From Phoronis australis (taxonomy: Eukaryota > Animalia > Phoronida), in assembly GCA_002633005.1 (NCBI GenBank), contig NMRA01000500.1:98220-162219 (forward strand): DNA of 64,000 nucleotides. The letters are read 5' to 3'. Positions 5,674 through 62,500 of this stretch are shown here, in pieces. The notes beneath the pieces were generated by a model. The model saw only the letters and a program-made list of their open reading frames with translations, did no database searches and was not told the DNA's origin. Every line of letters starts with the position of its first letter. Position 1 is the stretch's first letter. Position numbers and translations under genes: made by a program.

Positions 5674-5885
5674 TGACATGAATCCATTCTTCAGAGTTCT
5701 GTTTTAGTAGACGAGATAAATATCATCGAATTCTCTCATTAATCCCGGGACGTTATAGTAGTCGCTGTATTGGTCCAGGCCAGTGATGTTGTAGAAGGTA
5801 GTGTAGTTGAGGAAGGCCTTTTTGTTTGCCATTAGTTTTCCAAGCGCATTGTATGCCACGAATTCATTAAGAAATGTTTTGACAC
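5674..5885 (-). pseudogene. SLC28 copy A NEFVAY exon with in-frame TAA
   Basis: 212 nt; ...IYLVY*NRTLKNGFMS vs [16 protein letters not shown] in copy B. Confidence 0.9.
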
Positions 5886-7104: not shown

Positions 7105-7636
7105 TAGGCAATGGCCACCATCTGTGCTGGTGCAGCTAGCAGATACGATGCAGCTCCTGTAGGAGCTTCATACGCCAGAAGCTTTTTGGCGAATTGTGCC
7201 TCGCACTGACTGAAACATCGAATTCGTGTTGTTATAAATACATTTTGCGCATAGAGGAACACCTTAGGAGGTCGTCGAAGTATTTAATTCCTTCCAACTC
7301 GAACAGATACTCTCATTCTTAAACTTTTTTCTTCGAGCAGACCCTCATTCAGTTCCCAAAATCGCCATTTTCACACTGCGCACGTTAGGGAATACGTATA
7401 TCATGCTACCTGCTGGTCGCAGTGTTAAAAATGGGAAGTTACTGATTTTGGTAACTGAAGGGAGACTACTCGAAGAAAAAGTTTGATTACGGGAGTATTT
7501 GTTCGAGTTGGACCTCCTAAGGTGTACATCTATGCGCAAAATGTATTTATAACAACACGACTTTGATGTTTTAGTTCGTGCGAGGCATAATTTGCCAAAA
7601 ATCTTTTGTGCCAGCAGAGACAATGGTCATTGTCTA
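7105..7636. mobile_element. MITE-like element with about 130-170 bp TIRs (TAG...CTA ends); another left end at 29801-29990
   Basis: 7180-7273 is an inverted match to 7511-7605; taggcaatggcca / tggtcattgtcta termini. Confidence 0.75.
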
Positions 7637-15549: not shown

Positions 15550-15902
15550 CAACATGGAAACCTATTACTAGCAGCGTGTTGCAACATGAAAGCTTATTAC
15601 CAGCCGCGCGTTGTAACATGAGAGTTATTGCCACCGGCGCGTTGCAACATGACATCTTATTACTAGCAGTGTGTTGCAATATGACATCTTATTACTAGCA
15701 GTGTGTTGCAACATGACATCTTATTACTATCAGTGTGTTGCAATATGACATCTTATTACTAGCAGTGTGTTGCAATCTGACATCTTATTACCATCAGCGC
15801 GTTGCAACATGAGAACTTATTACCATCAGCGCGTTGCAACATGACAGCTTATTAATAGCAACGCGTTGCAACATGACAGCTTATTACTAACAGCGCGTTG
15901 CA
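15550..15902. repeat. 32-bp minisatellite, about 11 copies
   Basis: Unit cttattactagcagtgtgttgcaacatgacat. Confidence 0.95.
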
Positions 15903-18900: not shown

Positions 18901-19056
18901 TTATTAAGTTCGAAAGTAGGGATGCCTGACATTCCCAATGTTTTGGCTTGCACAGAGCCAACTGCGCACTGGATGGTGGAAAGAGACTACGATGTTTGGG
19001 GATACAAAGGCAAACATAAGAAATTTGCAAGAAGATAAAAAGAGGACACAGCACGA

Positions 19057-19275
19057 ACACACGGAGTGGACGGCAATGTACACCATAACACACGGAGTGG
19101 ACGGCAATGTACACCATAACACACGGAGTGGACGGCAATATACACCATAACACACGGAGTGGACGGCAATATACACCATAACACACGGAGTGGACGGCAA
19201 TATACACCATAACACACGGAGTGGACGGCAATATACACCATAACACACGGAGTGGACGGCAATATACACCATAAC
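19057..19275. repeat. 31-bp minisatellite, 7 near-identical copies
   Basis: Unit acacacggagtggacggcaatatacaccata. Confidence 0.95.
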
Positions 19276-19332
19276 ATATGTGGATGCACAGTCATTACAA
19301 GGTAGTAATTTAAAAAAATTAAGAATACGAAC

Positions 19333-20705: not shown

Positions 20706-21378
20706 TAGCTATAGATTGCACACATACGCAATGATTTGTCTAGCTATAGATTGTACACATACACAATGATTTATCTAGCTATAGATTGTACACGTACACA
20801 ATGATTTGTATAGCTATAGATTGTACACATAGACAATGATTTGTAAAGCTATAGATTGTACACATACACAATGATTTGTCTAGCTATAGATTGTACATAT
20901 ACACAATGATTTGTCTAGTTATAGATTGTACACATACATAATGATTTGTCTAGCTATAGATTGTACACATACACACAATGATTTGTCTAGCTATAGATTG
21001 TACACATACACAATGATTTGTCTAGCTATAGATTGCACACATACACAATGATTTGTCTAGCTATAGATTGTACACATACACCATGATTTGTCTAGCTATA
21101 GATTGTACACATACACAATGATCTGTCTAGCTGTAGATTGTACACATACACCATGATTTGTCTAGCTATAGATTGTACACAAACACAATGATTTGTCTAG
21201 CTATAGATTGTACACATACACCATGATTTGTCTAGCTATAGATTGTACACATACACAATGATTTATCTAGATATAGATTGTACACATACACAATGATTTG
21301 TCTAGCTACATGTATAGATTGTACATATACACAATGATCTGTTTAGCTATAGATTGCACACATACACAATGATTTGTC
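20706..21378. repeat. 35-bp minisatellite, about 19 copies
   Basis: Unit tagctatagattgtacacatacacaatgatttgtc. Confidence 0.95.
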
Positions 21379-28300: not shown

Positions 28301-28857
28301 GCACACTTCAACGAAGTTTAATATAGTTCACTTCACATCAACGGGAAAGGATCCATTTGGAAGCTCAGTCTGAATTTTTCTCATCTGGTCCAACATCCTC
28401 CCGGAATGTAGCCAGCAAACTTTGAGGAGTACAACTTCATAACTTTCGAAAATGTTCAATTTGAACATTTTAACTCATAAAAGGCGACTCCTTATACACT
28501 TCTGTTGTCTAACCTACTCAAGTGATATGTTTTTATCTGTACTTGATTTCAGTGACCCAGACCTTATGACATCAACTGTGAACCAAAGCCCATTCACGAA
28601 AACAGGTGCGTTTTTCACAATAACTAGCGAGAACTCAAACAACAATTTAAATAGATAATGCATGATTTTTACCATGCAGAGAGCTTCCTAGTTTGTTTGC
28701 GATGAAAGAATGTGTCAACACAATAAGCAGATATCTTCCTGGTTGGTTTTCAATGAAAAATGTGTCAACACAAATGAACAAGAATAAATAATGAAATCGA
28801 GTACGGGGCATGTTCTTACGAAGGCCTACTATTGCCGTGAAAAAAAAATAAAATTTG

Positions 28858-29270
28858 AATCAGTTAATGCGGATTGCCAATCTGTAAGTACGGATAGTCA
28901 AATATATGGATTGCCAATTTGTTATTACGGATTGCAAATCTTTTAATTCGGGTCGCCAATCTAAAATTACGGATTTGCCAATCTGTTAGTAGGGATTGCC
29001 AATCTGTAATTACGGATTGCCAGTCTGCTATTACAGATGATCAATCTTTTCATACAGATTGCCAATCTGTTCATGCGGATTGCCAATCTGTAAATACGGA
29101 ATGCCAATATGTTATTACGGATTCCCAATCTGTAATTACGGGTTACCAGTCCAAAAGATTGCCAATCTGTTACCACGAATTGCAAATCTGTTAGACGGTT
29201 GCCAATCTGTCATTACGGTTTGGGAATCAGTTAATGCGATTGTCAATCAGTACTTACGGATTGCATCCAT
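28858..29270. repeat. About 21-bp tandem array, probably transposon subterminal repeats
   Basis: Unit cggattgccaatctgttatta. Confidence 0.85.
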
Positions 29271-29800: not shown

Positions 29801-29990
29801 TAGGCAATGACCATCGCCTCTGTTGGCCCGAAGCAGAGGCGATGCAGAGGCTGTAGGCGCTCTGTACGCCGGAAGCTTTTCGGCGAATTATGCCTCGCAT
29901 CGACTAAACCATCAAAGTCACGTTGTTATAAATACCTTTTGCGCATAGAGGAAGACCTTAGGAGGTTGTCGATGCGTTTAAGTCCTTCCA
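29801..29990 (+). mobile_element. Terminal repeat of the same family as 7105-7280
   Basis: taggcaatgacca...gttgttataaatacc ttttgcgcatagaggaagaccttaggagg. Confidence 0.75.
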
Positions 29991-35092: not shown

Positions 35093-38000
35093 TAGTCAGG
35101 TTTACTATGTCCAAATTTTGACATTCGTTGAAAATTTTTGGGGAAAGTGGAAACTATACATTTTTGGAAATCTCATGGAATGACGAATCAGAAAATAATT
35201 GATTCGATTTTTTCGTTTGCCATCTTGGCGGTCATCTTTCATTTTCAAAAATGGCGCCCGTAAAATACAGTTTGCTCAGTATTTCTGCTCTTGGGTCACT
35301 TTGAATGTTAGTTTTAATGGCTGCACCCACATTTTATGGGGTAAGGAATTGAAAAACACTAGTTCTAAAATGATACATGTAATCTAAATGATTTTAAATG
35401 ATTTTAATAGCAGATACGAACCCCCAGAATATTTAAAGGAATCATAGAAACGCAGATTAACATATGTTTACAGTGTATACCTATTTCTTCATGAAAAGAC
35501 ATTTGAGACATATCTTTTGAAGATTTCGTAATTACTTTCACTGTTCACTTTGGAATCCAGTTCTCCTCTACTCAATGGAAATGCATTTTGCCTTTGGCAG
35601 TCGGATGGCAGATAAGCTTGGCAGTAACCAGGCTGAGGATCAATGACGAGAACAACAAGAGTTGTAGCCAGCTTGGCAAATCGACCAGAAACCTGCTATC
35701 AACCACTATGAATTCACTCTAATACCAAGAGCAATCTTTGCTGCCAGTGGAGCAATGCTGTCATGCACAGACAAATCGAATCGAACTCACCTTCTGCACA
35801 AACTGTCCGAAGCAGACGTCTGACAAAAGGACAGTCCTCAAGCTGCAAGAGAGGTTTTAGATCCAGAAAACATGTAAACAACATCCATTGAGTGTGTTCA
35901 CCCAAGCCACAAAACTGCACGTGTGGATACTATGGAAGTGATGTTCTTAACTAAAGATTATGACATCATTCTGGTTTTTGATACCCACAAAGGCAACTCT
36001 TTTAAACAATCCACAAGAAAAAAGGAGGCAGAGAAAGGGTCAAGTACAGTACCAGATAAGAGATGAGACTTTCATACAGAACATCCCAATGAGCCGTTTC
36101 CTCTCCTATAACCAAAAAAGGCTCAACCTACTGAAAATCTGTCTGTAAAGACACTTGAATATAATAAAGACGCAGACAAGATAGCCATTACTTCAGCTTC
36201 AGGATGCACAAAGAGCAACCGACGAGATCGACGCTTAGAACAAAACGATCACGAAAAAGCAGATATATTGCTAATACACTGTAAATCATGCAGTTCTGGC
36301 ATCACATCAAAAGGTCCCTGATTCTCAGCTGTTTTTTTCACCTGACATAGATTTACTAGTACTCGTCATTGCCTATTATAACGGGCATCTCAGAAATACT
36401 TCAGTCCCCATGCAATCTGGGATTGTGGACGTGAATCCAATATGCTCATCATTAGGTGCTTTCTGGGCAAAGGCTCTTCCTGCTGTCCATGCTTTTACAT
36501 GGACAGACAACACTGGTCCATTCTGTTGGTTGAATATATATTTGAAAGCAAACACCGATGATATCAATGCACAGCAGACTTTTTGTACTGCTTATGAAGT
36601 AACAGGTGAACCTCTTTTCACATTAGCCCCTTTTACAGGTGCATACTCATCACAGGGTATAGACACAAATAGCATCCCAGAGCTGAGATAATACCTCTTC
36701 TGCTGACAGCAACAAACGTCCCCCAACCATTGGTACTGACCTTAACAAACTCTATGACTGGTCTCACAAATGGAAGATGAAATTTAAACCTGAAAAAAGT
36801 GTTGATCTTATATTTTCTAAGTCTAATGATACTCATTTACAAACAAATCCAACACTGGAATTATCAATCAATGGGGAAGTTATCCCCAATAAGTCCACGC
36901 ACAAACATCTTGACTTGCTACTCGACCATAAGCTTACATTTACTCCTCATTGTCGCGAACTCGTTCAAAAAGTACAAAAATTAATTAATCCAATTAGAAT
37001 TATCTCTCGTCATCTCAACTCCATGCATCTTGAAACTCTGTTCAAGTCTTTTGTACTTCCACATCTAGATTACTGTGACATAATCTACCAGTCGGCAAAC
37101 GCTGGCGTACTTTTCCAATTAAAAAGACTACAATACCAAGCAGCTTTAGCCATAACTGGGGCATACAAAAGGTCCAACACAATCAAGGTTCTAAGTAGTC
37201 TTCACTGGAGCAAACTAGCAACCCGTCGTAAATTCCACCTGTCCATGTATACATTCAAAGTCTTAACCAACATAAACAAATACTCTAACAAAATCCTCTT
37301 TGACTCCTACAAAAGACCAAGCCCGAGACCAGGACTCCGGCAAAGCAATATGTATACTATTCCAGCCTCCATCAGCCAAGCCTTTAGAAGATCAACGATA
37401 TTAACTTGTATTGACAACTGGAATTCCTTACCATTCAAAATAAAAGAAAGTACTTCAATCGTCACTCTCAAAAATAACTTTAAAATGCATACCACTACTC
37501 CAGACTTGCCAGTCCCATTGACATCATTCCAACTTCCCCGCAACCATGAAATAACCCTATCCAGATCAAGATGTGGTCTATTTCTTTATAACATTAAATC
37601 TCTTTGTGTGAGTGGATAGAATTTTATACATCTGTATGAAAATAAATTATTTTCTTTCGTTGTCATATATTTTATTGTATTCTTAACATCAGTTTTTTTT
37701 ATTTATGTATTTGTATATAATCATTGTATATAGACTTCTTTGTATTTTTTTACCCAGATCTAATGCCTCTTGGCGCTTTCTGGGTTATGTATATCCATTG
37801 TGTTCTGAAGATTTCGTAATAAACATTAAAAAAAACATTGGTACTTTGAAACAGCATGTGCTGAGGGTGTTAAAGCCAGAGTGTGGGGCCAGGCAGCCAT
37901 TGCTCGACAGGAGTTCCTTGACCCATTGCAGAATTAATTTACAAGGACAAAGATGACCAGCTGAAACCCTCACAACTGAGGAGCTTCCGGCGCCAGAGGC

Positions 38001-39777: not shown

Positions 39778-42700
39778 TTAATTCCGAAGACAACGAAGAA
39801 AATGAGGTAACCCGATCCGTCTTAAGTCATCTCACCTGTCGTCATTAGAAATACACCCGTAACAAAGACCCTGCAAGCGGTTAATCAGATATGACCGCGG
39901 AGAAAAAATGCAGCTAGGGGTTGACACAGCTAGTAGTCGGAGTCGACCAGAAATTTTCGTCAGTTGTGCCCTTCCTAGCTGTAAAACGCAAGCCAGTTTT
40001 AATGATGACTCTTAAGAGTAGTTGGACGGACGCCAAAACCCAGACTTGAAATTTCTAAAAATGACAACTAGGTGGCGTACAAAACTTCAGATTTACCCGC
40101 AAATGAGCACAAAGTTCCCGTCGCCTCTTTTAAGAGTGAACAATTTGTTAAATTTCATGAAAATTCAAGAAAGCACTACAAAGATAAACAGGAAAATGTA
40201 AGTAAATATAAATGCCCATAGGGGCATAATTATAGCCGGATCCGTCCGCAAGTAGTCGCCATAACCACGTGCATAAGAATTTAACTAAGTTCCCGCGAAT
40301 GTTCATGGGATACAGCCGCGAACACAACAACTGTCATTAGCAGGTGCCACAGTACTCGGAGCCGTCCGAAAACAATCTTCAAGCGTCGTATTCGTAACGG
40401 ATTATTCCAATGTTTAAAACCTTACTTAGAGTTTGTGGGCCGATAGAGTTGCGAAAGCCAAAATCAGACGTGAAAATAGAAAAAAACGGACACCAGGTTT
40501 CCCAGAATGCGTCAAGTACAGGCAAAAACAATAAAGCAGCCGGCGTAACTAATAGATGCTTTTAGCCAGCTTCATGAGAATCAGACAAAAAACTCCCACA
40601 GTGTTGTCATAATGCATTCCGTGGCTACTAAGGGGTAAGCACGTGACCCGAAGCTTTTGCGGTACACCATGAGGTGTGCTAAGCCTACGCGGATGGGCTC
40701 AGCATCTCTGTCATTTGCCCTGCATAGTGTCCTCCTCTACTTCACTACTGGTAGGTCGTTGTTATGATAATCTTTTTGGTGCCCTTTTATTAGTGAGTGA
40801 ATCAGCGCCATTTTCGGGTTGTCTAACGTATCAGCTCTGCAATACTGGATACAGTGGTAGCAAAATGTATGAAGAAATTGGTTACGTCCTAAATGTATTT
40901 ATTTGTAGTGTATATGTTTTTGGAAATTCAGATTGGTCGACTGACGTTACTTGCATGGGCGTACATGTATGAACAGGGGAAAGGAGGGACGAGGACCTCC
41001 CTCCACGTATCAAGTTTTTCGGTGGTTTTATAGTGACTCGAATATTGATACTTTTGTTCTAGAATTCCAAGCGGAGAATTCCCTTTTTTAGATCGCCATT
41101 AGGAAAACGTTATTTATAAAAACGGAATGTTCGTACACTCCGTGTGGATTAGACTCCTAGGAGTAATTTTAATGAGGGTTCACGTTGTACATGTCCGAGG
41201 GCTGCAGCCCACTCAAAGTTTCTGTATTAGCAATCATAGTTGTAAACATTTCTGCGATTCTCGGAGTGCAAGTTCTTGCCATGAACTGTATCAGGGTACA
41301 TCTGGGAGGAACGAAAATTCACGTTAACACGAATAATTTCTAAAATTTATTGGGCAATATCTTCTCACAATCCCCGTGGGATGCTCCGTCACCCGTGCTT
41401 TCCTGGCAGACCGCCAAATAAATGTGCATGGTACAGTTTATCTTTGAAAATTGCCGTGAAATTCTATACATCCGGTAATCTGAAAAGGTTAGGATTTATA
41501 TCCGTACGAACTTACAAAACTCGACCGACCCATAGACGATTATTTGACTCATGAGAGCTGTGATGCACATTACAATTCTGGAAAGTTGTCTTCATCCCTT
41601 TCCAAATGGCATTCCATGACATTCGCCAATCGATTTTTAGTGAATTTTGACGTGAAGCAATGAAATTCAGACAGTTCAGTCAATATCATTTTCCCGCTTC
41701 CGTGCGCAGCCATTAGAAACTGAGTATCCATTGTCAAAAAGTGACTTTGAAACAACGCTTAAGACAATATATCAAGGGTACCCAAGTTTCCGGTGACTAC
41801 CGTGTACCTCCGCGGTATTTGAAAACAACAAAAATTGGAGACCAGAAGGCGGTTGCATGAACTGTTGTTGATGTGGAGGAACCTGAATTTGCGCCCAACG
41901 AAGAAGACGTGTGGCAGGCGTGCTAGTGCGACTAAAAACAGGTCAGATGTAAAATTGATGAAAACATCATCATCGTACAAGCTGACAAAGGCAATGCAAC
42001 AGTAGTACTTGATAAGGATGACTACAACAGGAAGATGACTGATCTACTATCTAGCGGGCAGTACAAGGCAGTAAAATCTGACAATACCAAGAGCGTAGAA
42101 AGAAAAATCAAATCCCTCTTGAAAATTTCAGAAGGTTAATTACCACGTGGCACACTCCAAATAATCAACCCAAACAACACAAAAGTCCCGCACATGTATG
42201 GTAAACCTAAGATACACAAACCTGGTATGCCGATGAGACCAATTATAAGCAACATTGGTTCTCCCTGCCACCAACCAACTAGATTCCTCAACAACATCAT
42301 ATCCCCACTAGTTGGAAAAACTGACTCGTACGTAAAGGACTCGAAGCACTTCGTGTCAATGTTGTCATCAGTCAGCATTACACCAATTGACACCACGGTG
42401 AGCTTTGATGTCGAAAGCCTATTCACATATGTACCAACAGCAGAGGTTCTCCCAATCTCTCAGGTCAAAGTTAGAACATGACCACAAGCCATCAGAGGAT
42501 GTAAACCTCCCAATAGGCTCCATTCTGGAATTAGTGACATTCAGTGTCAACACCACCTACTTCCAATACCAAGACAAGTTGGCAATGGGTTTACCACTAT
42601 CACCAGTCTTAGCTAAATTGTACATGGAGTGGTTCGAACAAACAGCTCTCAGCTCAGCTAGCAGACCCCCGAAGATGTGGAAACGATACGTTGACGACAC

Positions 42701-43581
42701 ATTCACAATATTCGGCCAAGACTCAGAAAATCCATCAGAGTTCCTTGACTATCTGAACAACATAGCGTCTACTATTATATTCACAATAGAAGAAGAGACA
42801 AATACATGTAACAGTCTCCTATGCCTAGACGTACAGTTAACAACGTCAGTCTACTATAAGAAGACCCACACAGGCCGATACCTTGACTTCAACTCCAACC
42901 GCATCAACGGAGTCGAGAAGGATATAATCAAATGCCTTGCATCAATATCAAAGGAAATCTGCAGTGATACAACACTCAAAGCAGAAATGACAGAGTCATT
43001 CGAAAGAAATGGCTACCCAAGGCATTTCATCAAGTCGGCTTTAACATCGCAGAGGAAAGACAAAGTGGCAGAAGAACGCCCACTGCAGACTATGTGCTTA
43101 CCGTATGTACCCGGAATAACCGAAAAGCTAGGACGCATATGTAGAGAATTTAAAATAAGAACAGTATACCGCAGCTCAGACACACTGGGTCGGCGACTGA
43201 CAAAAGTCAAACCAAGAACTGACATGGGAAAAAAGAAAAATATCATCTATGAAATCCCATGTGAATGTGGTGAATCGTATATCGGTGAAACATTAAGACC
43301 ACTGGAGACAAGAATTGCTGAGCATAAGAGGTGTTGTAGAGAAGATAATACCTCATCAGGAGTAGCAGAGCACATGTGGTTGAAACAACACAACATCCAG
43401 TGGAATAACATCCGAATACTTGACAGTGAAACAGGTTGAACCAAGAGAAAGATCAAGGAAGTCATGTACATGAAAGTACAAGGCAATGTCTTCAGTCGGC
43501 CAGGCAAACAACCAAGTGACACCTGGCTCAGTCTACTTAGGAAGGTTTAAGCATAATAAAAATCCCTCTAAGTAATTAGAT

Positions 43582-43660
43582 GACTCCGTGGTGTAGTGGT
43601 TAAGGTGTTAGACTCGAATTATCTGCAGTTCCAGAAGTCGAGTATTCAACTCGTGCCTCG
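43582..43660 (+). ncRNA. tRNA-derived (SINE-head-like) sequence with Pol III A/B-box-like motifs; not a functional tRNA
   Basis: GACTCCG-TGGTGTAGTGG-TTAAGGTGTTAGACTCGAATT...GTATTCAACTC; acceptor stem does not pair. Confidence 0.6.
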
Positions 43661-43723
43661 CACAAAAAATCACACCATGAGTGTACCACGTATCCGTGCT
43701 CGGCTCTTCTAAGAACGCGGGAA

Positions 43724-43765
43724 CACCTGACGATGGCCGGAGAAGAGACTGACTGAAACGTCGTG
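43724..43765 (+). ncRNA. Minimal type I hammerhead ribozyme motif in the Penelope 3' region
   Basis: CAC-CTGACGA-T-GGCCGG..CTGACT-GAAA-CG-TC-GTG; predicted cleavage after 43762; stem II has one mismatch. Confidence 0.75.
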
Positions 43766-44110
43766 ACAGTGTATATAGACAAGAGGTCGGTGTAAATAGA
43801 CCAAGAGATTTTAATAAAAGTTGTAATACGCCACCACCTCAGAGCGGTTTTAGGAAGTCATTTTAGGAAGACGAAATTAGTACAATAGATTCACGTAAGC
43901 AGGTAGAGCGTTTGAACTAAAGAACTCAATTTTTTTTCACAATTGATTGTCCTTGACTATTACAGTATTGGTGATTATGAGAACAGGCCGGGCATGTAGC
44001 CGAATCTTCTACGCAGCGCAATGGGTCAAACCCAAATGGCGACCTTTAAACAGGAATAAATCAAATTAACGTCAACATTACGTCATCAGCTAAGACCACA
44101 ATGACAAGTG

Positions 44111-47500: not shown

Positions 47501-50500
47501 ATAACTTAGAACGCCAATCCGTCATGAGTTGACTAAAATTCTTATACGGTAAAACAACATTTCACAACAACTCTTTAAAGTAGCATTAACTTATTTTTCA
47601 TCAAACAATGGTTGAGTGAAAGTGCAGGAGTGGTGTTTTGGTCCCCTCATGGTGTGCTGTCCGATCCCCGGGTTTCTTTTTTAAAGGTCGTGGTTCGTGT
47701 TTTTCGGGCTCGTTAGCTTTTGTGAAGGTGAGGGAGTCTATTTCGACTTCGGAATATCTGTTTTCACCGGTGTTCCCGTTTTGATGAAGCACCCTGATAC
47801 CAATCCGTAATTTTTTGATCACTTTACCACAATTATGCTACAGCAAGCCGCCTCTGGTAAAAATAATAACTTTTGATTTCGACTCCTTGAGTTGGTATGT
47901 GATGTAATTAGTCTAGGCTTTTTCCTTAATCAGGTTAGAACTGAATTTTGTTTGGACTTGGCGAAAATTGACAACTTTGTTACTTGATGCCACACTCGGC
48001 ACTCATATGACACGGAGACAGACCAACGTATTGCTCATCGTGTCACCCAGGCGACAAATTTAAACTGACTTGTGAGCAGGACGAGACTGATGTTGCAACA
48101 GTTATTTACGAGAGGCATGCTTATCAACAGGTGTAGCATACGGCTAATACTGACTATAACTAAGAACAAACAAACAAATGACTGCATTCCGCGTGCTCGA
48201 GTGGGTATCGCAGCAAACGGTGTCGCATTACCTACGAGAAGGTGGCCCAAACGTTTTCCTAGTATATAAACATACATTTTTTCCAACGATTAAAGCTGCG
48301 TCCTTCAAAACAGTTGTTGTACCGTGGTTAAACATCGTCAGTCAACAAACCTGCAATATCAGGAAATTGTTTCATTTAAATGCAAGCATTTATAAAATGA
48401 TAATATAAGTATACCAATCAAATCTTAAAGTGGTTGACAACACTGCTCTGTTGCCCATTTCCCTGTCTGGAATTCGACAAACACGCGTTGATCCTCATGT
48501 GAGCAATCACATATAAAGCGAGATGATGCACAGAATTCAATTTTTTAATAGTGCCTTGGTTTTGTAGTATTTTGGTGATTTTAATTTTTGGTCTATGAAT
48601 TATGTGTAGGTGACCATGAATATTAAGCTGTTGTGCCAAAATCAAACTGATATTCTTTACATGTATGTGATGACGTTTCTGGTTGTCATTGATCAAAACT
48701 TGATTTTTCACCTAACTTTTGAACGGTTATTGCAATCATCAGAGTAGCGCAGCTAACAAGCTTTAACTCACCAGCGATACAAGCTGTCATGAAGCAAGCG
48801 ACGTTGCCGGCAATCATGGCTCTCAGAACGATCTTTGCAAGGTCCGATTTCCGGTGCGGGGCCATTGCACCAAGGGCGCCCAGCATGATTCCAATAGAGC
48901 CCAGGTTGGCAAACCCGCAAAGGGCGTAAGTGGCTATGACGTCAGAACGTGCCTGGAAATCAAGCAAGACCTCACGATAGTGGACTGATATGCTCCATCG
49001 AACACAATAGAGCTAATTATCAAGTGATAAATACTGTCAAGTTTAGCTGAAATACTGCAATGTTTGGCCCTAGCTAAATGTTTGAAATTATTTGGTGAAT
49101 ATTTACTAAATTCTGTATGGGTGTTGTTATTAGAAAAGCATGGTTGGTTTCTTTTTGTTGATCTGACCACAGTGGGACGCCTAAAGACAACTTTCTGTTG
49201 CGTACGTCTGCCTTAATATCCACCACGATCATCGATGAATCCTCATGACGTCTGTTCTACAGTACTGTATGTGTTCCTTGTGACGACTGTCTGCACAACT
49301 GAGGATGAGTTTGGACGAATCCTATATCTTTAAAGGTAAATAAACTACGCGATGGGCGCACATAGACAGTCTCTGAACTTGTCGTTCGGTGCGACCACCG
49401 AATAAATATTATAAGGGCAAAATCTAAGCGAAATTTTCCGACAGAATAACCATTCTCGCTAGTGATTCCCCAAGGAGTCAAGAACTAACATTCTGGTTCT
49501 ACTCGAGAAACACAACTAGCAAGCGAATCTGGAACCGTACTTACAGACATAAATCCGTTCTCCAGGGTCTTGTTCTCGAAGACGAGATGGATATTATCAA
49601 ATTCTCTCGTTAATCCCGTGACGTTATAGTAATTGTCGTATTGGTTCACGCCAGTGATGTTGTAGAAGGTCGTGTAGTTGAGGAAGGCATTTTTGTTTGC
49701 TATCAGCTTCCCAAGCGCATCGTAAGCCACAAATTCATTGAGGAATGTTTTGATACCTAGAAAATGTATTATTGATGTGTTTTGCTTGAATCTTAGACCC
49801 AAATTAAAATCTAATGGACGTTTCTACAACTTAAAATAAACACAAATATGATAGAAATAAAACATTTCCCTGCAAATACATTCAGCAGCACTGGTGCATG
49901 TGTCTTGAAACTCTCACTTACCGATGAGCTCTGCCATCCGTCTACAGTCGTTGGCGTCTGTGCCCATGACGAAAGCAAAAGGCCAGAAAACATAGGAACA
50001 TATCAACTGAAATAGGAGAGATAACCACATGCATCATAAGCAATTGGTGCTAGCTTGGCTGATCGCTGAACGTTGGTCTTGATAGAGACAAAGCCGAGTC
50101 TTGAAAGGCCCAAACAACTGGAACGCAAGGGATTTGTTTTTAATTTCATAAAATGGCCACTAGATAGCGAAGATGTCGAACACATCTGAACTTGGGAAGC
50201 CGTTGTAGTATCTCTTATATGATTTTTTGACAAATTTCATGAAAATCCTCTAAGAAATGTCAAGATAAATAGCCAGGCGGTAGTCGAATTCGTTCATCTG
50301 TTGTATGACTGTTACGAATAGGCTTTCTACACTGTGAACCAGAAGGGGTTTAGTGGATACAGCCACAGATGCAAAAATAATGTCACGGGGGGACGACGGT
50401 GGTTGGGCCTGTCTCAAAATCTACGTCAGTTGAACTATCTTCAGTAGGAACACATCTGCCAATTTTCATCATGACGAACCTTTTAGAGTTTGGCAGGTTC

Positions 50501-53500
50501 AGACGCAGGCAGCAAAAAACATATTCAAATATCACTTAAATGGCCACTTGGTAGTGAAAAACTAGTAGAATTCACCCCAAATTGGACAGATGCTGTCATC
50601 TTTATAACAGAATCTTGTTCGCAAAATTCCATTAAAAAACATGAAGAATCTCTAAAAATATAAAGACAAAGGTAAAAAAGAGAATTGTCGATAGGGAGCA
50701 CACCGTTAATCAGAGCCAGTGGTGGATTTAGAGGCAGATTTGTTGATACATGTAGTTTAAGGCAGTGACGGACCATGCTATTGCTTTTAACCACGTAATT
50801 AACTGGAAAGACGCTCGTCCTGTCGAGTCGGAAAATAACTTGAGATCTAGACGGATTAGAGAGTGTATTTGGGTGAAAAAAGTGGCTCATTTATGAACAG
50901 AGACGATGGGAGTATAAATTGTCTAAAATTTGGAACAGTGTCATCACCTCGCCACCTAGTGTTCAATAGCTTCCGAAGATGGCTCTTGTGAGTAGCCGAA
51001 ACTGTCAAGGTACAGCGTTTTTGCTTGGTTGTGTCAATAAGAATTAATCTATGTGTTCTCTTCCAACCTTATGAAATTATTTAAGTGATATCCAACAAAG
51101 AATTCTAAAAAATACAGAGACAAACGAAAAAAAAATTGTTACTGTGGGACAACGCAGTAGTTGAGCCGGTCCAAAAGCCGTCAGGGTCTGTCTCCAGCTT
51201 CATAGGAACACATCTGCCTAATATCAATCATTATGATCCTGCAAGGGGCTTAGGAGATACGGCCACGAACGCCAGACGTAAGGACACCGGACGCTCAGAC
51301 AGAGATGACGACAATACGCACCCATGTGTTGGTGCAAAAAAAATTCTCAATGATTATTTGGAAAATCTGGTAAATAGCTAAGACAATGGGCAATAAAATG
51401 ATAAGCTATGCCACATGGAGCACATGCACATTACTATGTGAAAAACTAACGCAGCTGTGCCATAGCTGTCCGGCTTGTTTTCTAGAATGCAACAGCCCAA
51501 TAGTCCTTTGGCGAGTTTATAACAATAACGCGAGATTACGTGAGACTTAACTGTGACGTCACGGGAAGTGGGGCAAAAGCTTGTCGTTTGGCTAATTTGC
51601 CCAATACGTTATCAGAGTGTATTCTGTTATTTTCTTCCACTTTTTGGCCGTTTAGTTCGAAAAATGCCAAACAAGCATTGCTGTTATGGCAAATGAAATT
51701 CAGATTCGCACTACAACACGTTCTATCGCGTTTTGTACTAATTTCGTTTCGTGTATTTTAAACGGGCGATAGGCGAAATCCGCTGACTGATTAAGTTTTC
51801 ACCACGTCAAAAATACATTCTACATCTAAAATTATCACCTAAAAAGGCGCTTACTTTCTCCAGTGGTCCTTTCTGATCTAAACATATCTTCGATGAAGCA
51901 TAGCTACGGGAATTCAGGTGACTTTGACGAAGAATTCTAACTCCACATTATTGTGGTTAACGTTTAACTTAAACCGCGGCGTGCGCGATAACCACAAAGT
52001 AGTTCAACTGGTCAGGTGAGTATGAGGCAAAGGCTAGCGCGAGACTGAGTGAAGCGCGAGACCTGGCGTGTGACACTCTCAAAATAACATGATAACATAT
52101 CAAGTGAATTTGTAAGATTTGTGTTCCTTGGACTTATTGTTCGTGATTTCACGTAACTTCCTCAAAATGAAGCCCTGTGAGAGAAACTTGAGCGAACCGC
52201 GAGGTTTTCATGGATAGGTTCAAGTTATTTGTAGACTAAATTGTATCCAGAGTCAGGGTATGTGTTAATTAATTATAACTCCATGTGCGCATATGCATGT
52301 TTCTTTTGATTTTATTTGCTGTATTTTGAAGTGAGTAACTTTTTATGGGGATAAACTATCGCCCCGGTATGCCTGCGCATTCAGGCCTAGACCGGGTTGA
52401 GTTCCAATTTCAGTCCGCCGTTCACAGCTTCGCACAACATAACAAGTTCACATTTCCTTCGCCCATTCACAGTTATTCCACGATCCATCTATTATCTTTT
52501 AAGTTGTGTTAACGTTTTAAGCGTAAAATTCACCATAAGAACTCCAGTAAAATTTAGCGTGTGTAGCAAAGACTCGGGGCCAAACAAGAGCAATATGGCG
52601 GGTTTTGCCCCTTTTCCGGTGACGTCACATTGACTAACGAGAAACTCGCAAGTGAGCTATCGTAATTCTTCGGAGCCTAGACTCAGTATTCATGGACAGT
52701 CTAATGGCAAAAATCAGAACAAATAAAGACGACGTGCTCCAAACATGGCAGTCAGCACAAGCAAGTGAAAGACGAAAGTGAAATGAGCCGCATCGCGACA
52801 TAGGTATTCACGTACGGTTTGAATTTGAATGGATTTTTAAAGATTATATTGGACTTCGCGAATTAACCTAATGAAAAAAGTGTGCGAATGTTTAATAAGT
52901 TTCTAATAAGTAATGTACTAACAGGAATATAAACACCAAAATTGTATGCCCTTATACCTATATGACTGAAGCGTGAACATAAAAAAGTGACGACTGACCT
53001 GGAATGTGAGTTCTGGAAACTCGGGCTTGATTAGGCCAACCCTGTGTCCAAGCCATATCAATGTTTGATTGACGAATTGTAAGATCGACAAGAACGCGAT
53101 CAAATTGGCGGCTATGTTGGCCACTAACTTGATGGAGGCAGATGCTCCGGCCGAGGCAGCCTCAATGATGTTCCTCTCGGTGCTTGTTAAAGAAAAAACG
53201 AGAAATCGATTCAATTAGTCTATGAAGATGCTATTGCGTCATAAATTAAAGCTTTAATTTAGATCATTTAATTTATGAAACTGATATTGAAATTGAAGAT
53301 GATTTCAGGTCTTCGAAAGAACGGACTGAACACGGAATGTTGAAATACGTCTACGACCGCACCTCAATTAGTGTGTTTCTAGGGTATTTAACATAAATTT
53401 GAACATTGGGAGCGCAGAATACGTCAGACCCGTCCTAAAGGAAGATGTTGTCTCTGTAGTTGCCAAATTCCATGAAACTACGCCAAGAAACTGCAACGAT

Positions 53501-56500
53501 ACGGAGGCAAATGCAAAAATATTGTCATTGGGCACAGCGGTAGCCGAATCCGTCCAACTGTTGTCCAATTAATAAGAATACACTTGCCAAATTGTGATAT
53601 AGAAAATGGTCCATTGCTTACAACCGCAGATGCAAAAATATCACTATGGCTCACTACAATAGTTGGACCCTTGTAAACATCTGTGTCGGTTTTTATCTTG
53701 TCAGTAAGAATACATCTGCCAATTTTGATTACCATGCTCTGATTGGTTTGGAACAAAAAGGTGCAAACAACAGAAGACTCGGAAATCACCACAATGACCA
53801 ATAGTTGGCGCAGAATACGTCTAATCCATCCCAAAATGAAAGTACGCTTTTGGCTTCATGGAGAAACTTTTTCGTCAAATTTCATGAAAAAATGTCAAGG
53901 ATCTTTGGTGATACAGAGGCAAACCTAAATATTAAAATTGTAACTAGGTGGCACAGCAGCAGTCAGAGCCATCCTAAAAGTGTGGGCAGCCGTTGTCACA
54001 TAAATAGGAAAACACAAAACTACAACAATCCAGCAAGGGAATCAGGGAATAAACACAAAATTCATAAAAATACAAAGTCACCACTAGGGGACGTTACAGT
54101 TTTCAAACCCATCCGAAAATAAACGTTTTGCCATGGTCTTCTGATGAGAAAGGTAACTCTTAAGTTTCATAAAGCAAATGTTTCTTCAAGCAGTTTGGCG
54201 AATAAAGAGGCGGGCCCAAAAACACGATGTCAAAATAATGCGCAATAGCCAAAAGTTGGTGCAAAATACGTCGAATCCATCCGAAAATAAAAAAGCATTT
54301 TTGTCTCCTTAATAGAAACGATTTCGCCAAATGTCACGAAAATGCATTGAAATTAGGGACACATCTGTGGTCCGATTTTAAAGAAACTCCTCATATTTTG
54401 CCATATCCGTAGGAAAGCCTACCAAACTTCACTAAGATCTTTTACTATTAAAGGCTTTAACACATACAATCAACACAAAAAGCCATTAGGAGCTATTTAG
54501 CAGTTGGCATCATCGTCTACATGTCAGCCAAATTTCACGAGAATCCACCGTAGAACTTTAAAGACACAGAAACAATCGTAAAAAGCTATAATTGCGATTA
54601 GGGCACAGAAGTAGTCGGATAGGTCTGAAATTCCCCGTCATCCCTCGCCAGCTAATAGGAAAACATTTGCCAAATTTCAATAAGATCCTGCAATTAGGGG
54701 CTTAGAAGACATAGCGCCGGAAGTCAGACGCCCAGACAAGTATGACTGCGATATGCATCCACATTTCTAAATGTTGACGAATACAAAGGTCTGAAGGTTC
54801 ACGTTTTTGTTTTGGGAGGATTTTCATTGTTCCTCGACATGGCATGGTTACTCAGTGCATTTACATTTTTTGCCCATAATACTGATGCCAAGGTGCTGCT
54901 TCCAGGCAGTCCGTTTCCGCATCTGGGATGTCATGTGGTATCCTCAGCTATTACGTCACAAGAAGCCAACATGTCTTGTACCAGAAAGTCATTTTATGCG
55001 CCGAACATGGTCTCAACCAATAACAAACTGTGCAGACTTTTTCAAACTCAGTTATCTAAATAGATAGTTCGTTCCTTGGACGATTTAAAGCTGCTTTAAA
55101 ATAAAGAATTTTGTGAACTAAGACGGCCTTGATGTACCCATGTGATCACGACATAACCTCAAACAGACCTCAGTTATAAAGCATGTTGGGTGGCATTGCA
55201 TTGAAACCAACTGTCGATTGTAATCTTTGAACGGAAGAATATTCAAATATCAAACAGACCATAAATGGCACCCAACGTGAACGGAACTGTGATCCATTTC
55301 CACACGTCCTGCAAATACGGGTATAGTGGTGTCCAAGTCCCTATTTACGAACTACTAAGTGACAAAACGACAGGAGGGATATGCGATGCAAATAAGTGAC
55401 CGGGTGTCGCTGGCATTGTTGAGTGTGTTCGTGCAATAAACACTTATTAGCACCGAACAAAGTCTGGGAAATTTCCCCCACCTTTTCTGCATAGTCTTTA
55501 CATCCTTTACGGTAGTTCTCGATTTCTTAGTTTCCGGGTAGAAAAGTTTGGATATTGCTAAGGCGGCTGGAGCAGACATCACGGAAGCCGACAGTAGATG
55601 ATTGGCGGGAACCTACAGAAAGTTCAACATGTGCTAACAGTCAGTGACAATCACATCTGGCAATACAAATGGAAGTAGATGCTGTTCATTTTTGCTTGCC
55701 AAGATACAGGCCTAACATAGTAAGTCCGAAGACAAACTACATTAACTAGAGATTATAAACTGGAATTTAAGGAGCAGAAATATTGCGCAAACCCAGGAGT
55801 TTCAATTTGAAAATTGTATGCAGCTACAGTTTAAGACTTTTACTCAAGTTATGTTAATAGTAACATAAAAACGTTTGCAAAACAATGTTCTTAGAGCATT
55901 ACCCCAAACAGGATGTATGCAGCTAAGACACTTCCGGCGATAGTGGCGTAACCTCCCGTCATGACTGCGTGTAACTCTGAATTTGTCATGTCCTGAATCA
56001 GTGGTCTGATCATGAGGGGAGCTTCACTCTGAAACGAAGTATTAAATGACTAGTGCAATTAATTCCCGAATTAAACCATCACTTTTAAAGACGGACTTCT
56101 TGTGTACGACGTTGTTAATACACGAGCGTCAATTGCAATCTGCTCTGTTCAAAACTTTCCCTCTGACACAGCGCCACCTATACTGAAAAGTGGCCCTGTG
56201 GAAACATGATGAACGACACACAGAATTCCGTGTGTGAGCATCAATGTGCATGCTTATTTGGACGTTTATCTTTGACATCGTTACCACTTGCAAACGCCTT
56301 AATTCTATGCACTGAACTCGTTTGGGCTTAGTTACAGGATTAGGGTTTCCTTGATTTTGTTTACTTCGATCACTGCCCGTTTTAATAAATTGTAACTATT
56401 CAAGTCAAAGGTGGTCGCCATACCACGTAACAGTAAACTGAATGGGGTTTCCGAGATTTTAACCAATGGGAATGACTGAATATTATAACGTTGGTTTCAT

Positions 56501-59500
56501 TACTTTAACTAATGAGTGGCCCTGATAAACAACATTCCACAATACTACCTTTCGTAGCGCTGTGCGGGAAGAGTGTATTCAAAACCTGGCTTGAAGTCCA
56601 GTAATCCTTTTCACCACTGTAAGTTAACAACTTACCATGAGAAATGATCACAATCGGACATTGGATGGGTTCAGGCCACTCAATTCAAGTTTGGTTATTA
56701 CGGGTAGGCCATTTCCGGTTGGGGTTGGCTACATTATAATAAATCACTCTTTAACATTTGATTTCCTAACCAACAAGTGAGACCTTGACTAACCTGCCCG
56801 ATAAAGATATTTCCCGCTGCGTTCAGAGACTCGGCTGCCGTCGTTCCCATGGCAGCTTGCATAACCCATGCCACTTTCTCAATGACAACTTGCATCCATC
56901 CAAGATAGTACATCATAGATATAAATGTGCTGAAGAATACTACAACAGGCAATACCTGCAACATTCACAGATGTGTATTAATCTTTTTATTGGAGAAGGG
57001 AGCATTACGGTTTCGAATGCTCTAAATTGCCAAGACGTTTAAACACCGTGGGTATGTGACCTGTCAGGACTGCAGGAAAATCGTACAGGGGACATTGGTG
57101 AACGTTATGTCTAATGGAAAGCAAGTCTCGGAAGGTTTTTTTCCAGGCAGTAATGGACAACGGCAGTATCGACGATTGACTGGGGGTGTTCCGTAAATGT
57201 TGGTACTTTTAACCAAATGTCATATTGCCACATTTCGATTTTAGTTCGGGAAATGACAAATTGAACAACGACACTGGCAATAATGACGCCATGCCACGAA
57301 TAAAATAAGGACCAAAGACTGACGACCAGTTCCTTGGCAAAGATTTCTGCGTAGGCTGCTGATACATTGATACAAAAAGTGAGAATAGAAAAGTTAAATT
57401 AATTTCCTGTACCAGTGTGCCCGATCTGTACAACCAGGAGATTTTATTCTTGAGTTCGTCCTACAACGAACCGGAAAATACATGGGCCATGCTATAGTGT
57501 TCGGTATCGTAATTACAATGAATCTGAAGAACCTTGCAATCTGTTCGCCGGGGTCGTACCTTCGATTAACGTGCCTCACCGATCCATTCATACAAGCTTG
57601 CCATGCCTACTTACATAAGTTGACTTTCGTGATGCAGCGATGTAGCAAATGATTCAGGTACACGCATTAACGTAACAACTTACGCCATTTGAACGCATTA
57701 TGGACTACTAAAAGCTTCAGCGACTCAGGCTTGACTTTCATACATTTGAATCACATAACGTCTTTAACTATCATACTTTCATATGGCTCAATGAAAATAT
57801 TTTGAAAGCAAGAAGACTGACGACAGCACACCTTTTATAGAAAATCTTGTGAATGGAAGATTTGATATTCATTTCATGGTGATAATGAACAAGCCAAAAA
57901 ACACGCCAGGTGAGTGATCCAAAAGGGACTAATTATTATTTTGTTCGCGCTGCCGATTGGATTTGGTGAATGCCGCCTCCGTGTATCAACGTGGAAAAAC
58001 AGCTTGGTCATTTCGTAGTTTTCATGCACGCACCCAGGGGGACTCGGGGGGCTCGAATGAACCCCCCCCCCATTTGGCGAAGTGGGCAAAAAGGACCGCC
58101 TTAGAGAAACAAAAAGTCCGAGAAAACGAAACACAAGCCCAATAAAAGCGTGAATGCACAATTTATAGCTCTGACGGTGGTTCCCCGATTTTAGTCCCTC
58201 GTTTTTTGTTATTAAAAGGTCCACACTGTCCAAAATTCGAGCCCCCCTATATATTAGGTTGGGTGCGCGATTGGTTTTATAACGAGGCATGTCACCAAAG
58301 CTGATGACCTTCGACAAAAGAACAGACTAAACTGCCACCTATGGGCGAATGGTTTATCACAAGATTGGCAAGGTACATCACCAGATTGGATAATGCTACA
58401 TAACATATGCACTCTCTATCGTTACTTTACCTTAAACGCAAAGAAGTGGTCCAAGAATTTTTCACCAAAAACGAAGCTAGCCCCAGCGTCTGTGTGCGCG
58501 AGGAATTCACTGACTCTGTCACCCAGCCACTGAAATGCCGCGTATCCCCACGTTGTTTTAAGGATCAACAAGGCGAACACGAACTGCAGGAATAGACCCC
58601 AAATGACCGGGCGCCATTTCACCTGGGAGTATCAAGCAACATTAGTAATCGATTTATTCAGAAATTTAACCAAACTGAAAATAATAAAACAAGACGGAGC
58701 AACACCAACAACGTTATCATTCTGTGTTAAAGCCTAACTACAATGGAATTTTGTTATTTTAGATGTATTGTGCTAACAAGAGAGTTCCAGCGTAGCTTTA
58801 GTAAAATAAGAAAACTAAAGTCCAATTACGCAAATGTAAGCACGTCAAATGATAAGTGAAGTTGCCTTTTCTTGCCATATTGCGTCACTGCGAGATCCCA
58901 GCACAAACAACAAAAGGTTGTATTGAGTAGGGCTCTGAATAGAACACAATTGCCTGCGGGTATTATTAGCAGGTCTATGAATTAAACGGTGATTCTCGCG
59001 GTGACGTAAACAAAAGCAAGCTAATAATCCAAACAGCTCGTTACATTTGGCAATATTAATGGCACTCGTGGGCTCAGAGCGATGCTCTTAACATACTGTA
59101 GGAACCAAATTTGTAGATGTTAAAGTTGAAGACAGGCTTAAAGGTAATAATCTGCGCTTCCTTTCAACAACTGTTTAGGTATTAATGCTATGAACACATG
59201 AATGCAAATTCTTGAGGACTACAGAATTTATGTTATGTGCCTGAAAGCAATGCCATCGAGTTCATAATCAAATTATTACGTCTTTTATAAAAACGCAAAG
59301 TTTTCACGGATATCATCACATATTCTACAAAGACTAGTTTTTGCATGAAACTTTCAGAGACTGCTTCTTTACTTTACAACGCCTGGGATTTTTCTTTGAT
59401 GACCTTTGACCCAGGGTACTCTGCTGTCTAAAATGAAGACGCCAATATTGGTGACTTAACGGATGTCTTGAGTTTTATAAGCAGTGCTTTTGGCAAAAAA

Positions 59501-62500
59501 GTTTAAATACTTGTACCAAAATAAATGAAATATAACAAATAATTTTGCAGCAAGTTTCATGCAAAAATATGTCAGCTGTGAAAAATATGACGACATTGGG
59601 GAAATAACGCAACCAAAGTTATTTAATAATTTCAATCGCTGATAACAAAAGTAGCCAATCACTGAAGGCATAGTTTTCCGAAGTTGTCCAGCTTTAGCCA
59701 ACTAATTACCATGTTTGAACGATGCAATGTGGGTTTGGGTTCAACAGCACTTAACTCAACTGTTCTCAATTTGTGTGTGAGTATTTCTTTCAATGTACCA
59801 ATTAACACCCCATTTTATGTTGGGAAAACAACATTAAAAGTGGCTATAAACCCACTTTCCATCACAAAAACCAACTTTTAATTTAGTCCACGTGCCATTA
59901 TGAAATTGGGTTTAAATTAGAGGCAATTTCAGGTTTTCAAAAGAGCTGCTAAGTCGTGAAGTGTCACATTATGTTCCGAGCATGGCGTCAAAGAATAACC
60001 AACTGACAATTCTTTGTCAGTGAGACACCATTTTGCATCTGAGTGCGAGACAAGTTGACACTATTGCGGTAAATAATTTTTAAGTTAATAAGTTCATTTC
60101 GCTTTTAAATAGCGCTACTTCTCCCAACGAATCAGTCACGAAATCGTCCTCACAGCCTATTTATTTCAGTTGCAAGAAGGACATCTAGAGTTTGTGAGCC
60201 GAAAGAAGCTTCAGAAAATCCAAGGAGCTGGCAAATCCATTTTAAAATTGAACTCTTCAATTCACTAGCTGGTTACATTTCAACTGAATGTTGAAACCGA
60301 TAGCAAGACTAGGTTTGTTAGGATTAATTGGTGTTTGGACTACCTGTTCAGGCGGTAAATGAAGAGAGAATGTTGACATGTAGTGAGGCTTAATCATGAT
60401 GCTTTATCAATCAATTAAGCTTTAACCACCCTAACTCAGACGAATGTTTTCACGTTTGAATGCGTATGACGGACAACGAATAAGGTGACGAGTCAAAGGA
60501 GGTTCCAGAAAGTCAAAACAATGCTAAAATTTTTCAAATTTTGACATCTTTAATTCTCTAGCTGGTTACCTCTAATCAGTAACATAATGTTGACACCGAT
60601 GTTATCGCGGTTTACTTAAGATTATCTCAAACCTTATTTTGTGGCCTCTATTCAAACTCGTGTGTCAAAAAATAAAATAGATGTTGGAATGCCGTGCAGT
60701 TACCGACGGATAAGAATATAAACTAGTAAAACTAGTAAAACTAAAACGACGAGCATCGTTATTAAAATATCCCCCACGTTACGGTGTGCTACAGACTGCT
60801 GAGTATATGTAGATGGATCTAAAATAAAACGACACAGGCACATTGTCCACGCTGCCTACTGTAAGTCAGTATGTAGTCTCCTGTGCCGTTTTATTTTACA
60901 TCCATCTCTATGTATTCAGCAGTCTGTAGCACACCCTTGACAAAGAGCGCATCGCTCGGAACGTGGGAATATTTTAATATATTTTAGTAACGACGCTCGT
61001 TGTTTTAGTTTTAATAGTTTTACTATCAAAAATAAGCTTTGTCAAATAGTGAAAGTATATATTTTCTGAAAAAAATCCCATAGAATATAAAATATGGTTT
61101 GTATTCTTTACCATTAATATTATTACGTTAACACCCTTTTAAGTCAAAAATTCATTTTTATGAAAGGTACATCCGTAGCTAAATAACCCCTCGGTCGATT
61201 TTGTTGGAACCTTTTTAAACGACAACTTCAACAGTTACCTCCAAAATTTTGTTAGAAACTTTCGATTAGTCTGTTCGTTTAGTTTCAATAACAAATCAAC
61301 TCGCAAAACGCAAGGTATATTTGTAAAAAATAGAATTCGTATTCGTCTTTGTTAGATTACGCAAAAACTAGACTTTTAAATCAAAAATCCTAACAGCTAT
61401 TTTAAAAATGATTAATACATATTAACTTTGGAAAGTTTTAGTGAAATCTACCACGCTGTTTTCGAGAACCCGGTTACCTAAATTCAAATAAAGTCGAATT
61501 GCCGAAGCCGAGAGATAGGCGATTAAACTGTGACCAGCGAAAATCTCAAGGTCTTCGGTTAATTATTCGGTAAGAACTTGTTTTCGGTAAATATAACCTA
61601 TACATGCCTAAACCATGTTAGCTATTTCAACATTCACTCGCAATGTCAAATGAATTTGCAGTGCGTAATTAACTTAATTATCATTAAAGCGTACTGTCTC
61701 CAGCCACGTGGTGGGATCAACTATTACTGTTGTTTGACCTACTTAACTGTAGGTCACATTTCATCGTTATAGGCATACTCTGTACACATCAAGTGCCGCG
61801 AGACTGATACGAAACCAAATAAAAATGGATAACACAAATCGAGTCGGTGATTAAAGCATGTCGTTAGCATGAGTTCGAAACAGCGAAATGTCAATTTACG
61901 TATTGAAATAAGGAATTTGGGTGAGTATTTATCTCCTTTCACAACTTGCTGTGTTCATGACCACAGAGGCGAGAGGCTACTTGTAGCATTCGTTCTCAAC
62001 GGTCGTATGCATGTAGACAGAAAACTCCCTCAGGATCAAAACTACACGTATTTGTTTTCCTCGGCACAGTTAAATCATAAGTACACAACGTTTACTCAAA
62101 ATTATGGTGACTCAGTCAATGGTGACTTCGGGTACATACTGTTCTGTACCTGGCGAGAGGTTCGATTTGAGCGACAGCCTGTAAACTTTGACCTCGGGTA
62201 AGTAGTAAACAAATATCCACGCGGTTGTGCAGTTCCAAGGTGGTTCTGTTAAATCTTTTTTGTCTCCAACACGGTAAATGCTTTGAATTTGAAGTTTAAC
62301 AAGAATGAAGATAAGCTATTTTGCAAGACACTTTTGAATTAATGTAAAAATGGTCATTTTTTTTGAATAAGGTTTGAGATAAACTTAACACCATTGAGGT
62401 AAGTTCACGACTCTATTACCAACTATTTCACGTCATCACAGGGATGACGTCAGGATTCTTACCCTCGCTGGGCTGTACGAGAAGATGTAACAGAGAATAA

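Follow-up and report, generated by a model that had tools for sequence, protein, structure and literature searches.

The closest described counterparts of the element analysed here are the Penelope-like elements (PLEs) exemplified by PAc of Anolis carolinensis (PMC11167929) and by the PLEs with minimal hammerheads (min-HHR; PMC4209133). As in our element, a single ORF encodes a reverse transcriptase (RT) followed by a C-terminal GIY-YIG endonuclease, the pseudo-LTR carries a minimal hammerhead overlapping the ORF start, and the copies display two internal 3' ends located 30-40 nt apart, 5' truncation and inverted 5'-to-5' joints. However, the word tRNA does not occur in the available text of either paper, nor in that of a third core paper on PLEs, whereas the family described here carries a leader with A and B boxes. 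In the D. virilis Penelope, the place filled by this tRNA-derived leader is occupied instead by a TATA-less internal promoter with an intron, similar to that of Drosophila LINEs (PMC2377424).

Other systems share only some of these traits. The schistosome Sm-alpha and Sj-alpha elements likewise unite a type I hammerhead with a Pol III promoter of tRNA origin, but they are non-coding, often arranged in tandem and active in cleavage assays (PMC6765202, PMC2770079), whereas here the hammerhead is minimal and the corresponding parts form the leader and the N-terminus of an autonomous RT-endonuclease ORF. The TRIMp3 elements Cassandra, Helenus and Ajax also hold the promoter of a small-RNA gene in their terminal repeat, with conserved boxes and a lost tRNA function; they belong, however, to the LTR elements, are non-autonomous, measure 0.3-1.3 kb and have no hammerhead (PMC10886601), whereas our PLE is protein-coding and about 2.6 kb long. 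Finally, animal non-LTR retrozymes also carry a type I hammerhead and derive from PLE pseudo-LTRs (PMC7229834, PMC7761336, bioRxiv 10.64898/2026.07.22.740005), but they are tandem, non-coding and, in the available text, described without a promoter (PMC7761336), in contrast to the single, ORF-linked copy with promoter boxes reported here. No description of a tRNA-derived leader in a PLE was found in the main texts of the openly accessible papers searched.

The decayed copy and its pseudo-LTR

The window, i.e., the whole stretch of 64,000 nucleotides of Phoronis australis DNA that was analysed, contains the remnant of a broken Penelope/Poseidon-type element at about 41936-43862. The interval 43582-43812, singled out in an earlier note on this DNA, sits inside the 3' pseudo-LTR of this decayed retrotransposon, whose features are the following:

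41936..43550, plus strand: broken PLE ORF, truncated at its 5' end (RT, linker without Cys motif, GIY-YIG endonuclease; tblastn)
43582..43665, plus strand: tRNA-derived head, joined to the ORF end in other copies and with the same layout in two related loci, L017 and L037
43589..43599, plus strand: A box, with no majority change listed across the reads of other copies
43643..43653, plus strand: B box, decayed in the window copy and canonical in most other copies
43677..43679, plus strand: likely start codon, out of frame in the window copy because of one extra base at 43702-04
43702..43717, plus strand: 6-bp hairpin with a TCTA loop, three of its six pairs being changed on both sides among three families
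43724..43765, plus strand: minimal type I hammerhead of the PLE type, with a predicted cut after C43762
43756..43863, plus strand: N-terminal codons of the ORF, which the pseudo-LTR repeats (translation matching residues 17-51 of the protein P0113 at 24 of 36 residues, E = 2e-11)
43809..43812, plus strand: first TTTT run, which lies within coding sequence and may act as a Pol III terminator; no majority change listed in other copies
43848..43851, plus strand: second TTTT run; no majority change listed in other copies
43817..43862, plus strand: two clusters of element 3' ends (43817/43826 and 43860-62), seen as loose ends and a depth drop

Homology from the RT to the GIY-YIG domain covers 41936-43547 (tblastn), contig depth increases at the 5' edge of the element (bin 41916-42019), and the frame closes with a TAA at 43548-50, in agreement with the ORF end previously placed at about 43550. 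The frame is interrupted in the window copy by a premature TGA (43437-39) and a frameshift near 42455. The arrangement characteristic of EN+ PLEs, a single ORF with the RT followed by a C-terminal GIY-YIG domain, is nevertheless intact in P0113, a full-length protein of 826 residues showing 71-74% identity to the window ORF (tblastn). The remaining traits of EN+ PLEs are also present, namely a minimal hammerhead in the pseudo-LTR overlapping the ORF start, 5' truncation, inverted 5'-to-5' joints and an optional tail of 30-40 nt. In the alignment, the linker between the RT and the endonuclease shows no additional Zn-finger-like Cys motif, such as the one that Neptune and Nematis possess (PMC8557442). 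By the linker criterion of that paper, the element fits the Penelope/Poseidon type, our own trees being built from unnamed relatives.

The sequence at 43756-43863 encodes an N-terminus similar to that of P0113, indicating that the pseudo-LTR repeats the ORF start, as in PAc. Since this coding sequence follows the head, the head represents the 5' leader of an autonomous element. A similar N-terminus is found in P0116, which lies outside the clade bearing the head. In the window copy, the frame that begins with the ATG at 43677 is closed by a stop. In other copies, most reads have one base fewer at 43702-04 and a C at 43750, and with these two changes the family frame starting at this ATG opens, as worked out by hand. 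Similarly, in both L017 and L037 an ATG follows the head and the frame remains open through the hairpin and the hammerhead to the end of the pseudo-LTR. P0113, the closest full-length protein, uses a different frame upstream of the hammerhead loop; therefore, the ATG at 43677 is only the likely start, and the start codon is not fixed in the clade. An ATG inside the hammerhead (43733), considered by analogy with PAc, was rejected because its frame closes after fewer than 8 codons in the window copy and fewer than 5 in the majority of the others.

The type I hammerhead previously proposed at 43724-43765 is confirmed, as it fits the min-HHR pattern, in which the core is followed by an unpaired base, stem II is long, a palindromic ACGT is present and helix III is missing (PMC4209133). 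It comprises CTGACGA (43727-33), an unpaired U (43734), stem II (43735-40/43749-54) and GAAA (43755-58), together with the palindromic ACGT and a stem I of 2-3 bp, and it lacks helix III. Most other copies have G-C where stem II of the window copy contains its two G-U pairs (43750 T>C in 309/365 and 43754 T>C in 306/370 reads, X6 and X8 combined). Considering the upstream hairpin and the hammerhead stems together, 7 of the 14 pairs covary in three families, a value reached by 0 of 500 shuffles, for three sequences from which the structure itself was drawn. Motifs of this kind without helix III do not cut as monomers (PMC4209133), and for the window hammerhead, cleavage is predicted to require a dimer or the help of a protein. 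In three standard RNA-seq runs, which do not constitute a cleavage test, no common RNA ends were found at 43762 and the depth was flat across the site. The hammerhead unit is single within the window. The hammerhead model also matches 60923-60977 weakly (E = 0.0012), with altered core letters; this is probably a chance match or a dead motif.

The two clusters of 3' ends likely correspond to the PLE "tail", that is, to the two start sites of reverse transcription (PMC11167929). The cluster at 43860-62 coincides with ATT, the cut motif preferred by PAc (PMC11167929). The 3' junction of the element is spanned by a 10-bp direct repeat (43848-43857/43861-43870) that may represent microhomology with the target primer; the G at 43854 that makes it perfect is an A in most other copies.

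Several features lie elsewhere in the window. On the minus strand, exon-like frames are distributed over 48686-63536; judging from their motifs, they presumably resemble a concentrative nucleoside transporter of the SLC28 family. On the plus strand, an open frame of 310 codons (36687-37619) without a passing Pfam match presumably resembles the C-terminal part of a LINE reverse transcriptase. Minisatellite arrays are located at 20706-21378, 1225-1815, 15549-15902, 19056-19276 and 28857-29265, and dispersed repeats pair 7105-7296 with 29801-29990 and 5655-5887 with 49526-49758.

The tRNA-derived head in other copies of the family

The ORF stop and the likely ATG are separated by 126 non-coding nt, of which the head takes up about 84. 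As in tRNA-derived SINEs, the head contains both an A and a B box. Using the consensus sequences TRGYNNARNGG for the A box and GGTTCRANNCC for the B box, the A box was recovered at 43589-43599, exactly where the earlier note had located it, with no mismatches. The B box was also found, but one base to the right of the position first given (43643-43653 instead of 43642-43652) and with three mismatches in the window copy. Considering the window copy alone, the pair is marginal, being equalled by 14 of 200 shuffles; it is secured by the other family copies and by the relatives. Indeed, the reads of other copies carry the canonical B-box letters at 43643 (76/103), 43644 (100/103) and 43653 (108/113; X6 and X8 combined).

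Model searches for the tRNA and the hammerhead of this region came back negative. With default settings, ARAGORN detects no tRNA in the head or in the relatives, a possible pseudogene appearing only at 80% of the threshold, and Rfam gives neither a tRNA nor a hammerhead match, for the window region and the relatives alike. Single-strand folding yields neither a cloverleaf nor a hammerhead. As no cloverleaf is recognised by ARAGORN or Rfam, the possibility of a functional tRNA gene was rejected. Regarding its origin, the head may derive from a tRNA-Ser, with CGA at the place of the anticodon and a spacing of 54-62 nt between the boxes, like that of tRNAs with long variable arms. However, the halves of the head match phage tRNA genes weakly (E 0.02-10), and the tRNAs in question are those for Asp, Met, Ile, Thr and Asn.

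Copies were surveyed via contigs and reads of the same species label. In copies showing 23-34 differences from the window, contigs bridge the ORF end and the head, so that the tRNA-like block is indeed shared by other PLE copies, as the earlier note had proposed to check. Since the head is common to these copies and the B box and stem II are canonical in them, it belongs to the pseudo-LTR of the family, of which the window copy is a decayed member.

These joints bear directly on the alternative initially considered, a plain SINE inserted in this one PLE copy with tctaag as its target-site duplication (TSD). Such an insertion would account for the two tctaag hexamers flanking the block, and one single-copy contig skips 43576-43704, with unknown letters in between. 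Nevertheless, the junction between ORF and head recurs in other copies, and the second hexamer (43708) is the loop of the covarying hairpin, conserved in all three families; therefore, although both hexamers exist, their reading as a TSD was rejected. Moreover, contig depth behind the head (11.2-11.7k) equals that over its first part (10.5-11.3k), arguing against a free SINE family sharing the head at a likeness of at least 80%, and no second copy of the head is present in the 64-kb window. The block was not seen apart from the host element, with a TSD and empty sites of its own, and the part downstream is coding. We regard this explanation as refuted.

Contig depth climbs toward the 3' end of the element, returning to the single-copy level past 43862, and short copies greatly outnumber long ones. 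At 43582, it increases about 2- to 3-fold in X3 and X4, both from one sample, summed contig depth not being equivalent to copy number. This step is weak in RNA (1.3-1.7-fold) and is not seen in the coarse bins of the DNA run X2 (617, then 659). Three individual copies start at 43578-43581, corresponding to two inversion joints and one further record. Opposite-strand joints are present among the copies, and no tandem short-unit or go-back joint occurs among the joints listed (15/50 and 15/23), which come from short contigs. A variant lacking 43601-43706, and thus the B box, the ATG and part of the hairpin, with four other letters in between, reaches a depth of 230 in X3 against a single-copy level of about 45, i.e., approximately five times this level. 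Separately, an arrangement joining 43346 to 43673 on opposite strands is abundant in S2 (depth 179) and appears in RNA in one direction only (12 reads in X6 and 6 in X7); having its own indels, it possibly represents an amplified or transcribed sub-family.

In three standard RNA-seq runs, in which the reads come from many diverged copies, no RNA starts or ends shared by many molecules were detected. This result says little, because in standard libraries covering many diverged copies a short unpolyadenylated RNA is easily missed.

Headed relatives and headless loci

A metagenome scan provided 78 loci, from the best 80 of 121 confirmed stretches. Among the 46 fetched loci having both an ORF end and a hammerhead, only L017 and L037 present an A and B box pair with no more than one mismatch; many of the remaining 44 are near-copies of a few families. 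In both, the boxes show no mismatches, and for each of them 0 of 200 shuffles match. The window family, L017 and L037 share the same order of elements: ORF stop, 31 nt, tRNA-derived head, A-rich linker, ATG, hairpin, hammerhead, ORF N-terminus and element ends. Outside the boxes, the head is poorly alignable between the three.

In the endonuclease part, no other loci come as close to the window family as these two (52% and 54% to P0002, about 53% protein identity). Two quick trees, of 40 and 45 selected rows, place both loci and the window protein on one side of a branch, with SH-aLRT supports of 99 and 96. P0002-P0006, P0029, P0044 and P0110-P0113 were compared as proteins only. The search of representative proteins retrieved no further full-length member of the headed clade, and no relatives were found in viral contigs. 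Two prokaryote matches to the hairpin-plus-hammerhead pattern in genome contigs (L079 and L080) have neither a stem II nor boxes and were taken as chance. A tRNA-derived head ahead of the hammerhead is, in our judgement, very probably a real architecture, both family-wide and clade-wide.

The same 12-bp direct repeat flanks the head in L017 (678-689 and 807-818) and in L037 (612-623 and 739-750), where it is followed by an AAT or AAAT microsatellite. Its first copy is also predicted to pair with the bases immediately ahead of the second copy, forming a 7-bp stem that would close the head. The window family has not retained this repeat, which may represent either an ancient TSD or an element with a function.

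The head may alternatively descend from an old SINE or tRNA insertion that became fixed in an ancestral pseudo-LTR, where it would be a slowly decaying relic or would be kept for a job other than that of a promoter, such as TFIIIC binding that aids Pol II or insulates, or an RNA structure serving translation or protein binding. The repeat flanking the head in both relatives would agree with this idea, as would the lack of any observed transcript start and the presence of the B-box-less variant in several copies. Nevertheless, the A and B boxes have been kept and the cloverleaf lost across a protein divergence of about 47%, a pattern that fits selection on promoter boxes, not a relic or a tRNA-shaped structure. 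An old insertion of this kind therefore appears improbable to us.

The spacers of the headed and headless loci also differ in composition, with a T content of 19-25% in the former versus 27-56% in 10 headless family representatives with a hammerhead. By eye, the long T-rich spacers of three headless loci (L001:2120-2800, L002:1600-2300 and L019:1100-1793) display a branch-point-like CTAAT, a pyrimidine tract and an AG just before the hammerhead. Such ends are as expected of the Penelope 5' intron, and the headed families have no such tract.

Candidate Pol III transcription of the element

A first TTTT run is present at 43809-43812, as noted before, and a second one lies at 43848-51. Both persist in the window family upstream of the main 3' ends, and in L017 and L037 there is no T4 between the head and the end of the pseudo-LTR. 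TTTT is absent from 2,832 nt of sense-strand ORF in the three headed families, whereas 28 of 32 other loci contain 0.8-18.7 per kb; four of these 32 headless loci also lack it, and once the base or codon composition of the elements themselves is taken into account, the deficit is not significant (P = 0.07-0.2 for the window and 0.21 when pooled). Regarding codon choice, TTT is used for 1 of 18 Phe codons in the headed ORFs, compared with 46 of 139 T-ending codons among the other two-fold codons (Fisher p = 0.014, a post hoc comparison of three related families). No such gap appears in 30 other loci (232/394 versus 1155/2050).

The earlier note had viewed the locus as an autonomous PLE with a retrozyme- or SINE-like cassette. 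From this reading, the tRNA-derived A/B-box block upstream of the hammerhead is retained, being common to the family and its relatives; the non-coding cassette of roughly 230 nt is abandoned, since the region is coding. Such a cassette would give a self-cleaving, retrozyme-like Pol III RNA running from 43582 to the TTTT ending at 43812. Its parts (head, hammerhead and TTTT) are present and common to the family, Sm-alpha joins a Pol III promoter and a hammerhead in the same manner (PMC6765202, PMC2770079), and retrozymes derive from PLE pseudo-LTRs (bioRxiv 10.64898/2026.07.22.740005). However, all the mapped 3' ends (43817/43826 and 43860-62) lie beyond this TTTT, so that an RNA ending at 43812 could not have templated these copies. 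Together with the relatives lacking T4 and the coding nature of the region, this makes the cassette very unlikely, and it is further disfavoured by a hammerhead without helix III, of a kind that does not cut as a monomer (PMC4209133), and by the lack of tandem joints among those listed.

Instead, we lean towards the tRNA-derived 5' leader working as an internal (type 2) Pol III promoter for the RNA of the element. The scarcity of T4 and TTT, the retention of the boxes, the depth step at 43582 and the head filling the place of the promoter were counted in favour of this interpretation, while the persisting TTTT runs, the weak or absent depth steps, the lack of a common RNA start and the B-box-less variant were counted against it. 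A further idea, which we regard as tentative and rather doubtful, is that Pol III makes the protein-coding message itself, an RT-endonuclease mRNA of 2.5 kb. The clade would have exchanged a Pol II promoter and 5' intron for a captured tRNA gene, T-run terminators would be avoided by codon choice, the message would be translated without a normal cap, and truncated copies would spread as SINE-like hammerhead passengers.

Under the proposed mechanism, TFIIIC would bind the A and B boxes and Pol III would start near 43582. Where copies form a partial tandem, the transcript would extend across the hammerhead and past weak T4 runs as far as the downstream ORF. The RT of the element would then start at two sites near 43826 and 43861 and often stop early, giving rise to many 5'-truncated copies; short copies that reach the head would keep the promoter and could spread like SINEs.

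Alternatively, the head could drive only short Pol III RNAs of about 280 nt, including the head, the hammerhead and the RT start sites, which would be SINE-like passengers of the element protein, the protein itself being made from Pol II read-through of host or tandem transcripts. Short copies are indeed far more numerous than long ones, and the depth steps up at the head. Uncapped RNA translates poorly, and the T4 runs in the N-terminal codons of this family would hamper long Pol III transcripts. Pol III elements are usually short (PMC10886601). Nevertheless, this explanation does not predict the scarcity of TTT codons and T4 deep in the ORF, the spacer of 126 nt leaves little room for another promoter, and the headed loci have no pyrimidine-rich intron end before the hammerhead. 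We find the restriction of the head to short RNAs unlikely, albeit worth serious consideration.

In the usual view, autonomous retrotransposons are Pol II genes, and SINEs are their Pol III parasites (PMC10886601). If the leader indeed promotes Pol III transcription of the element, this divide would be blurred by a PLE that encodes a protein and has no non-coding part other than a tRNA-derived promoter. Such an element would offer a natural test of a Pol III transcript as the mRNA of a large protein, as well as a direct route from an autonomous PLE to tRNA-plus-hammerhead elements similar to Sm-alpha. For annotators, some apparent SINE or pseudo-tRNA calls would be PLE pseudo-LTRs. Even if only the architecture holds, these elements would still represent an undescribed sub-clade of PLEs with a captured tRNA leader.
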